Made by a program: the position numbers and the translations under genes. From positions 2,021,455-2,085,454 of the forward strand of contig JBNZDD010013683.1 in NCBI GenBank assembly GCA_050575255.1: 64,000 nucleotides of DNA, in the 5' to 3' direction. The number at the start of each line of letters is the position of its first letter. Within the stretch, counting starts at the first letter, position 1. This document shows positions 18,501 through 21,500 of this stretch, one piece after another. The DNA comes from Harriotta raleighana. Its lineage: Eukaryota. The notes beneath the pieces are model-generated. The model had not been told where the DNA came from. It did no database searches and saw nothing but the letters and a program-made list of their open reading frames with translations.

Positions 18501-21500
18501 ATCATTATAAACTGCGAAGTAAGAGCTGAAATATCCTGAAATGTGCAGATTAAAACCAAATACACCTCATGTTGTTGTAAAACTCAAAATATATATATAC
18601 CATGGAATAAAACACAATTAGAATCTGTCTACTTAATAATTATACAGAATAAAAAGATATCACACTGATGATGTGTTCTGGAAATGTTTCCTTCACTGCA
18701 GCTCCCTGACCCAACTGATAGTCTTTCACCTTTCATTTTCTGACTTCTTCTTCAAAGTTCAGCTCAGGTACCTGGCAGCATGAGTGTGTGACACGCGCAC
18801 TGCACTATCCAGCGACTCCTGTTCATTTCATTTGAGCTTCCAGGTCATTCGGGCATTTTGCAAATTTGGAGCCGAGGGTATGTGTGTGCAATGGGTTGGG
18901 TGGTGGGGAGGAGAAGGTGGGGGTAAATTTTCCTGCAAACACACCAGTTCTTTTCGAACCTGAAAATTCATTTAAAAAAAGGAGCTAGGGAAATGTATTT
19001 TTTTTACAAAAACCCAAATTATTTAAAGGGACATTGGCTGGAAGATGGAAGATATGGTTACTTTGGTATGTTGTTTAACGCAAGGGTTTTTCGGTTTGCA
19101 AAATGCAACACTTAAGCTTCCCCTCAACAAAATATTGTTACATCCTTAACTTTTTGCTTTTCAACAGATGATAATTCCCTGCCCAGCATGAAGACGCATC
19201 ACGTTTTGCATGGAATTTTATACGGATTCCTCCGTTTATTCTAATATTATCTAAGTTATTGAAACAGAATTATAATCGATTCCTTTCCAGTTTGAATTTT
19301 GAATGCGTAATTTGTGGCCCTCAACTGCGGTTAATGAAAATAGCTTTATAAATAAAATAATTTGGTAAATGTGTTCACAAGCTACTCTTTTTGTACTATA
19401 AATAAGCCTTGAATTTGAGCTCGTACCTATCCTGTTTAAACATCTCAAATGTTCTTCACTTGTACTTCTGTTAGTGTAGGGCTTTCATTTGCCTGCATAC
19501 TTTGTAGGCAAGTGAAAGAACTACTGTATATTGTGTACAGCATGATCTTCACAAATAGTTGTGTGGCTTAAGTAGATTTATGCTGGGAGACAACATTGGT
19601 TATGATAGTTGAATAAAGAAAACTTTGTAAAAAGAACAGCATTTTCACCTAAAAACAGTAGAACAGCTAATGTTTGGACCTTTTCATGGAACACAGCCAC
19701 TCAGATGTGCTATTAAAATGCTCTCTCCGGCGCTCAGTTTTATATCTGTCCGTGTCGAAGTGTGCACCATAAACTGTGTTCACGGGAGTTATACTGTCAG
19801 ATTAATCCCAGCAGCATTTGTGGTACACTGGAATAAAGTAGTCTCCCATTGTCTAAGAAAAAACAGGATGTGGGTGTTTTAAAAATGCCTTGTGTTTGCC
19901 CACATTGTTCACATTGATATGGTGTTATTTTAACTTGCAGCTGCAGTTGCTCCAGACTTAACTCAAGTGGAGCAGTTTGCGACCTGGGAAAACGTTTTAT
20001 TTTTAATTCATAATTTTACCTTCGAGGAAGGCAGCAGCGAACTATGTTGCATTGTAATTCCGATGAAAAGCTCCTAAAAACCACCAATGGCTTTATCAGT
20101 CTCCCCTTTCACCCACCCCTAACTTTTTAACTTTTGCGCATTCCGGAAGGAATAGTTCCTTAAACTTTTACCATTCCATCGCTCTCACTAAGATATGAGG
20201 ACTCCACAGGAAGCTGCAAACTTATTTAAATTAGAAGAGTGTTGCTAAATATTATCACTTCATAGCAACAAAATACTGCATTTTTTAAAACAATGTCACA
20301 CTGTCTGTCGTCTGCAATGACAGTGTAGTAATTCAAACTCTACAAATCAAGTTTTACTTCAAACAATAAAAAAAAAATTCCCTACTTCTAATCTTCGATG
20401 ATCTGTGAACTGAAAGTGACCTTCCAGTTCATGGTGTATATCTTGTCATTGAATCCTGAGATGCTTCTTACTATTGTGTTACTGCTCTTGTACAATTGCT
20501 GGCCAGTGCTGGAGGCTGGAGAAGTGCTAGGATACAGAGGAGACTGTTTTATCCCGTCCCAATTCAAATAGGCTTATTTTAGACTTTAGACACGGTTTTT
20601 GAACGGACGCCTCGAGGTGGGAGTTAATAAGTTAACCAGTTTATGGCGCTTTTATGATCATTAAAACGTAGCTGTAAATTGGCAGCAGATGTGAGTTTGT
20701 AACTACTGTGAAAACGGTTCGAAGGAAAGTGAGCTCTATTTACGTTTTGCGAGTGGCTGTCGGGAGACCTCAAAAGAACCAGAGAGTCGGTTTGATTATT
20801 GGAAACAGTTACTGGTGAATTGCACTGTCAGTTGTGGCTGGGATATAAATGGAAAAGCAGAGAAGCAAAAAACAGACACAGAGAAAGGTTAGAATAGAAC
20901 AGAATGATCTGGATCATTGATATGGTCTGAATTTTACCCACATATTGGCTCATGAGCTGCCTAAACTGTTGAAACAGATTAAAGACAAGTAACTAATTTA
21001 CTGAAGGGATTGAACTCATATTTGAATGCTAGGGTCCTAACTACATAGCAATCTTAAAATTCTTTAAAATAACAACAACAAAAGACACATCGGGAAGATG
21101 TCCCAGGGCGCTGGGGAAAAGAAAATCGATGCACTCTTTAAACCAGATTCAATTCGTATTTTATTGATGAGAAAGAATATTAATTTTGCAACATGTGAAA
21201 TCTTCTTACAGTCAATGCCTTTACACTTCCCTAACCTAGATTTCTGTACAGCTCTTCTAGAATTCAAGCTATCTAGCCACAAAATCACGACTTGTAAATA
21301 AACACACCCAGGTTGCTAGGTGCGGTCAACATTTTGTCAGCCCACAATTAACCAGACTATGCCTTCAGCTTTTGTGACTAAGCAATCCAAATTTATTTTT
21401 CAAACCACATGAAAGGGAGAATTCAGGATCACTACCTTTCGGTATTCACTTGAAAAATAAACCTCTGTTGTAGTTTAAAGAAACCTTTTTTTGGGTTTAA

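Follow-up and report, generated by a model that had tools for sequence, protein, structure and literature searches.

A probable counterpart of the alternative exon 37B in the last LRP4 intron of a chimaera-like genome

The last intron of LRP4 in the window, as we call the whole stretch of 64,000 nucleotides analyzed here, contains at positions 18702-18767 (plus strand, 66 nt) a match to exon 37B, an exon known from the mouse and human genes. In muscle, splicing would very probably include it between exon 37 and exon 38, and the receptor would then end 13 residues past exon 37, with NPSY kept and the 111-residue tail lost. That the exon is included in the window's species, and in muscle, is something that we infer from sequence. 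An earlier, sequence-only reading of this DNA had proposed that the intron hides a cassette of two exons, here called A (18844-18877) and B (19168-19244), which could swap the cytoplasmic tail. The idea of the product that it foresaw, one which keeps NPSY and drops the last 111 aa together with the class I PDZ ligand, stands, and the exon responsible appears to be 37B, not A and B.

The exon 37B match and its surroundings

On the plus strand of the window lies the 3' part of LRP4, and CKAP5 comes after it. Spliced mapping of the Callorhinchus milii record P0129, together with translation, places LRP4 exon 37 (mammalian numbering) at 17716-17857 of the plus strand, and the last LRP4 intron was mapped in the same manner to 17858-22589. 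Exon 37 contains NPSY, and its 3' end at 17857 lies in phase 0 (YKKE), as had been read before. The coding part of the last exon, exon 38, occupies 22590-22925 of the plus strand; its product of 111 aa has the C-terminus ESEV, a class I PDZ ligand, and is identical to the C. milii record at 109 of 111 residues, an identity that points to a chimaera as the likely source of the genome. Elsewhere in the window a short interspersed element recurs at about 6644-6940, 12314-12628, 27203-27505, 31289-31981 and 40809-41356, with similar translated stretches, its copies sitting in several introns and between LRP4 and CKAP5. A GC-rich island (GC 0.53) lies at 32001-34000, upstream of CKAP5, whose exons at 37540-63508 are on the same strand as LRP4.

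The candidate 37B ortholog sits between exons 37 and 38 with AG and GT sites (acceptor cactgcag, donor CAG/gtacct), 76 nt upstream of segment A. Read in frame after exon 37, it provides 13 codons followed by a TGA at 18741-18743, which leaves 24 nt between the stop and the donor in the window. Its peptide is identical at 7-10 of 13 residues to 12 distinct tails, which represent 24 database isoforms among the matches listed. For six of the seven short tails tested, the best match in the whole intron fell at 18699-18711 (scores 45-58, with other frames at 26 or below), and the short-tail peptide has a single matching place in the intron, 18702-18743. At the nucleotide level, the published mouse 37B primer matches at 21 of 29 nt at 18702, its best place on both window strands, and the exon part of the human primer matches at 14 of 19 nt at 18699, its best window position. 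Two residues of the window's peptide, P at position 2 and T at position 5, are absent from those positions in all 24 tails among the matches listed.

To score splice sites, we used weight matrices for which 42 introns mapped in the window served as the training set. By these matrices the 37B sites stand at the 12th percentile of real sites (the donor at 18767 scores 5.9 bits), and 152 pseudo-exons as strong as 37B occur on the 64-kb reverse strand; because of these weak scores and equally strong pseudo-exons, it is conservation by itself that carries the case for the exon. Tissue-specific exons usually have weak splice sites, and the weakness of both sites here makes default skipping with tissue-specific inclusion likely. 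We place the donor at 18767, provisionally, from its score and from teleost peptides in which translation reads through into the intron; an alternative donor at 18756 was rejected with a score of -2.8. The teleost read-through peptides retain the acceptor context too (SLQL), and, read by eye, they have a Val (GTN) 7 codons past the stop and then QH[DEG]. In the window, a Val codon stands 8 codons past the 37B stop, with QHE in an adjacent frame, and the teleost QH[DEG] and the window's QHE fit a shared CAGCATG, a likeness read by eye for which the alignment test of the flank was not significant. When 25 of 33 read-through proteins were compared with four window segments, p<0.05 was reached for 37B in 6 and for the flank in 0. 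In two Logan proteins, P0033 and P0046, the 37B stop is read through as Trp, exposing intron sequence beyond the exon, which is apparently a product of gene calling with TGA as Trp.

Motifs for splicing factors were counted around 37B and A. A GCATG at 18778-18782 of the plus strand, 11 nt into the intron downstream of 37B, is likely to be a splicing enhancer of the RBFOX type. Further copies start at 19186, 19208 (TGCATG) and 19540. The 500 nt downstream hold three GCATG against 0.5 expected (p=0.011, for one of 7 motifs in 7 regions), and two of the three downstream copies fall within B. Inside 37B itself there are 6 PTBP1-type pyrimidine 4-mers against 1.0 expected, and none of YCAY, YGCY, ACTAAY and TGTG was enriched in these counts.

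With exon 37 ending in phase 0, 37B would be read directly and would stop translation after 13 codons. The rule for nonsense-mediated decay sets a limit of 50-55 nt between a stop and the junction; because the 37B stop lies 24 nt before the last junction, inside that limit, the 37B mRNA is predicted to escape decay and to be translated. The mouse exon would escape likewise, its stop-to-junction distance being 17 nt by calculation from the published exon size of 62 nt and tail of 14 aa. The short-tail product would retain NPSY and lose ESEV, and the invariant SLSPF[I/L]F end may give the short tail a binding role of its own. As for regulation, the weak sites would lead to default skipping and PTBP1 would repress the exon, a role reported for mouse exon 37B in the available text of bioRxiv 2020.06.30.171983, and the downstream GCATG would likely promote inclusion through RBFOX.

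The short tail among LRP4 proteins of other vertebrates

LRP4 proteins were gathered through a search with exon 37, from which the best 120 of 184 proteins were taken, and through two cluster look-ups, which added 152 proteins at no more than 15 per cluster. Ten of the resulting 272 proteins were left out as they had no exon-37 motif, and 262 were compared. Among these matches listed, 200 run into exon 38, 24 end in a tail of 13-14 aa, 36 have other endings, and 2 stop inside exon 37. Val is the first residue in 33 of the 36 other endings among the matches listed, as read-through of a GT donor gives. The 24 short-tail proteins among the matches listed belong to catshark, epaulette shark, coelacanth, lungfish, bowfin, zebrafish and other teleosts, salamanders and lizards, and include one Logan protein. 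All 24 end in SLSPF[I/L]F, with S, L, S, P, F and the final F invariant and with I or L at tail position -1. A near-invariant end, found with an intact exon here and shared by sharks, bony fishes and tetrapods, argues that the tail is selected as protein and not just as a stop.

Eighteen cartilaginous-fish-type proteins with exon 37, four of which were assigned to this type by likeness, are among the matches listed; 14 have the normal tail, 3 the 37B tail and 1 another ending. No chimaera short-tail record was present among the 15 of 97 cartilaginous-fish cluster members listed, and the sole chimaera record among the matches listed, C. milii isoform X2, has the normal tail. RefSeq predicts a 13-aa tail that shares 9-10 of 13 residues with the window's in XP_038664216.1 (Scyliorhinus canicula X5) and XP_060695067.1 (Hemiscyllium ocellatum X4), and likewise in XP_064423221.1 (Latimeria X5) and XP_073763688.1 (Danio rerio X4). 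These short LRP4 isoforms, those of sharks included, are automated predictions and come from species other than the window's.

The same collection contains further variation at this end of LRP4. P0131 (XP_072448789.1, Chiloscyllium punctatum isoform X7) shows yet another LRP4 ending, the third, with 12 residues past exon 37, and this tail found no match in the window's last LRP4 intron (best score 20). Predicted isoforms of sturgeon and paddlefish (P0157 and P0170) stop a few residues early inside exon 37, which likely arises from a donor within that exon and would be another short-tail form. In several teleost records the joint of exons 37 and 38 varies by one or two residues (Q, VQ), a pattern that suggests tandem acceptors.

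Segments A and B and competing readings of the intron

Much of what had been read from the letters of A and B is borne out. Segment A is a plus-strand segment of 34 nt preceded by cttccag and followed by gtatgt, and it reads 11 codons plus one base, so that it exits in phase 1. Segment B, also on the plus strand, follows a good acceptor and is open in that phase for 25 codons, up to a TAA at 19242-19244. Several AATAAA had been noted past B, and these are present at 19351, 19612 and 19832; three in 600 nt is more than other introns would lead one to expect (p=0.03), for a stretch that was picked post hoc, and the last LRP4 intron contains 13 AATAAA in total, five of them upstream of 18702. The G-runs said to follow A are likewise there, with 4 in the 47 nt past its donor against 0.29 expected in a stretch also chosen post hoc, and the same intron has two further G-run clusters of this kind. 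The YCAY repeats said to precede A did not hold up, as only two TCAT occur there (18823 and 18828) against 1.1 expected (p=0.31), a count that does not mark A as a NOVA-regulated exon. Positions 18700-19400 have one match in the genome G000, so the region of A and B is not a detected repeat, and a repeat origin for it is unsupported.

The splice scores of the two segments lie within the range of real sites. For A, the acceptor scores 6.7 bits (40th percentile of real sites) and the donor 9.1 bits (69th percentile); the acceptor of B scores 9.2 bits (74th percentile). The other introns, 18,033 nt in all, hold 1 pseudo-exon at least as strong as A, and the 64-kb reverse strand holds 4, for an expectation of 0.26-0.29 per intron of 4.6 kb, and acceptors as strong as that of B are expected 1.8-2.1 times in an intron of such size. 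Two of the four A-like pseudo-exons on the reverse strand have an acceptor of B's strength 70-1000 nt downstream, so that chance would yield a pair like A and B at a rate of about 0.15 for each such intron (2 in 64 kb). A random intronic frame is open for at least 11 codons in 54% of cases and for at least 24 codons in 28%. A further AG/GT segment of 61 nt, at 4586-4646, has a score that matches that of A; it lies in an LRP4 intron farther upstream and could be either a pseudo-exon or a genuine alternative exon.

As coding exons, A and B are unsupported by comparison with other proteins. Not one of the 262 LRP4 proteins among the matches listed has an A- or B-like tail, and the best tail scores among them were 26 of 58 for A and 26 of 130 for B, against 56 of 70 for 37B; by this count, A and B show no homology to the known alternative LRP4 tail. 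The natural frame of 59 aa over A had no match among 1.84 billion representatives and no candidates in a search of near lengths, and the frame of 42 aa over B retrieved nothing at E<=10, all three being weak evidence for such short peptides. In the read-through comparison described above, A reached p<0.05 in 1 of 25 proteins, which is the chance level, and B in at most 1 (p=0.050). The claim that A and B form the tail-swapping exons thus gives way, with no A or B tail among the 262 proteins and 24 37B tails among the same matches listed. The proposed cassette of two exons is probably no real feature and likely consists of chance splice-like sites beside 37B; most likely, A and B belong to the intronic regulatory flank downstream of 37B.

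Three other readings of the intron were weighed against the one that we prefer. A and B could form a lineage-specific two-exon ending with a 36-residue tail and its own poly(A) site, besides 37B; the splice scores, open frames, G-runs past A's donor, AATAAA past B and single-copy sequence are what such an ending would have. Against these stand the chance rate for such a pair, the lack of A- or B-like tails among the matches listed (0 of 262, and 0 of 18 cartilaginous-fish-type proteins), the natural-frame searches that found nothing (weak evidence), and the unenriched YCAY, and we consider this ending highly improbable. The conserved copy of 37B may instead be an unused or rarely used relic in the window's species. 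The weak splice scores, the P and T at positions 2 and 5 that the 24 tails among the matches listed do not have, and the lack of a chimaera short-tail record among those matches are compatible with a relic, but its frame and stop are intact, as are the invariant end, the acceptor context and the GCATG downstream, and weak sites are usual for tissue-specific exons; we consider this reading very unlikely.

The remaining reading, which we regard as unlikely, gives a role to A's donor at 18877. It could be used in the control of 37B in two ways. Splicing at this distal donor would produce an exon of 176 nt whose stop precedes the last junction by 134 nt, and inclusion of A after 37B would put the stop 58 nt from that junction; either would likely make a stable short-tail mRNA a target of decay and thereby tune LRP4 levels. 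A joined alone to exon 38 would add Gly-Cys-Cys and then a stop. The donor at 18877 is stronger than that at 18767 (9.1 against 5.9 bits), is the second-best donor-like site inside the intron, is followed by enriched G-runs, and lies 110 nt from the 37B donor. The near donor is favored by the size of the mouse and human exon, given as 62 nt in the available text of PMC11911633 and bioRxiv 2020.06.30.171983, and by the teleost peptides, where Val 7 codons past the stop is followed by the QH[DE] motif also present past 18767; the chance-level result for the A region in the read-through comparison (p<0.05 in 1 of 25) also speaks against the distal donor.

The end of the short tail and the known isoform

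According to the available text of PMC2891790, the normal LRP4 tail, with its S-X-hydrophobic end of class I, binds PSD-95/SAP97; for class II PDZ ligands the consensus is hydrophobic-X-hydrophobic, a loose one, in a classification that has been challenged. The F-[I/L]-F of the 37B tail agrees with this loose class II consensus in all 24 tails among the matches listed and in the window. The 37B end may accordingly be a class II PDZ ligand, the normal LRP4 end being one of class I. A Ser-Pro site adjoins the hydrophobic end. We tentatively suggest, as a possibility of which we are doubtful, that 37B is a partner switch, and not a plain truncation, dating from the last common ancestor of jawed vertebrates; through it, muscle LRP4 would trade ESEV (PSD-95 family) for the invariant SLSPF[I/L]F, to be bound by a class II PDZ scaffold or another reader of hydrophobic ends. 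If this were true, LRP4 as agrin receptor at neuromuscular junctions and in heart would differ in its anchoring or trafficking from the LRP4 of neurons. LRP4 is described as the agrin receptor at the neuromuscular junction and as a congenital myasthenia gene (available text of PMC11911633).

The sequence-only reading knew of no description of such an isoform, but the type is known in mouse, human and chicken, and a short-tail knock-in exists, as the accessible portions of three reports make clear (PMC11911633; bioRxiv 2020.06.30.171983; PMC4331535). The first of these describes exon 37B in mouse and human as 62 nt long, with a stop after 14 aa, validated by RT-PCR, and muscle-specific, with high levels in skeletal muscle and heart (PMC11911633). 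The second describes an unannotated exon of 62 bp in Lrp4 intron 37, called 37', that depends on PTBP1 and, in mouse and chicken, is specific to muscle (bioRxiv 2020.06.30.171983), and the portions of both reports that are accessible treat the short-tail isoform as a truncation of unknown function. Lrp4 AS knock-in mice carry a natural splice variant which truncates the tail after NPxY; limbs are normal in the knock-in mice without introns 36-37 and in most tail mutants, and LTP remains normal when the whole LRP4 tail is lost (available text of PMC4331535). These normal limbs and normal LTP mean that the 37B switch may matter little under laboratory conditions.

A literature search outside subscription journals and theses retrieved no account of a 37B exon in fishes and no class II PDZ reading of the 37B end, nor was a report of two LRP4 mini-exons '37a/37b' found. 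Conservation to cartilaginous fish and the putative class II end are thus absent from the literature found. We would like to note that the isoform class is already known and that public annotation already predicts a short isoform in sharks.

The exon of the AS allele is presumably 37B, and its protein, with the tail cut after NPxY, is the protein that had been predicted for the window from its letters. The candidate in the window shares with mouse and human 37B the intron, entry in phase 0, an early stop close to the donor, and loss of the exon 38 coding sequence, along with matching nucleotide and peptide sequence. It differs in size, with 13 aa and 66 nt in the window against 14 aa and 62 nt in mouse and human; the window has no tandem acceptor upstream, the bases preceding CAG being CTG. 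An exon 37B in a chimaera-like genome usefully extends a known event and does not make a new system.
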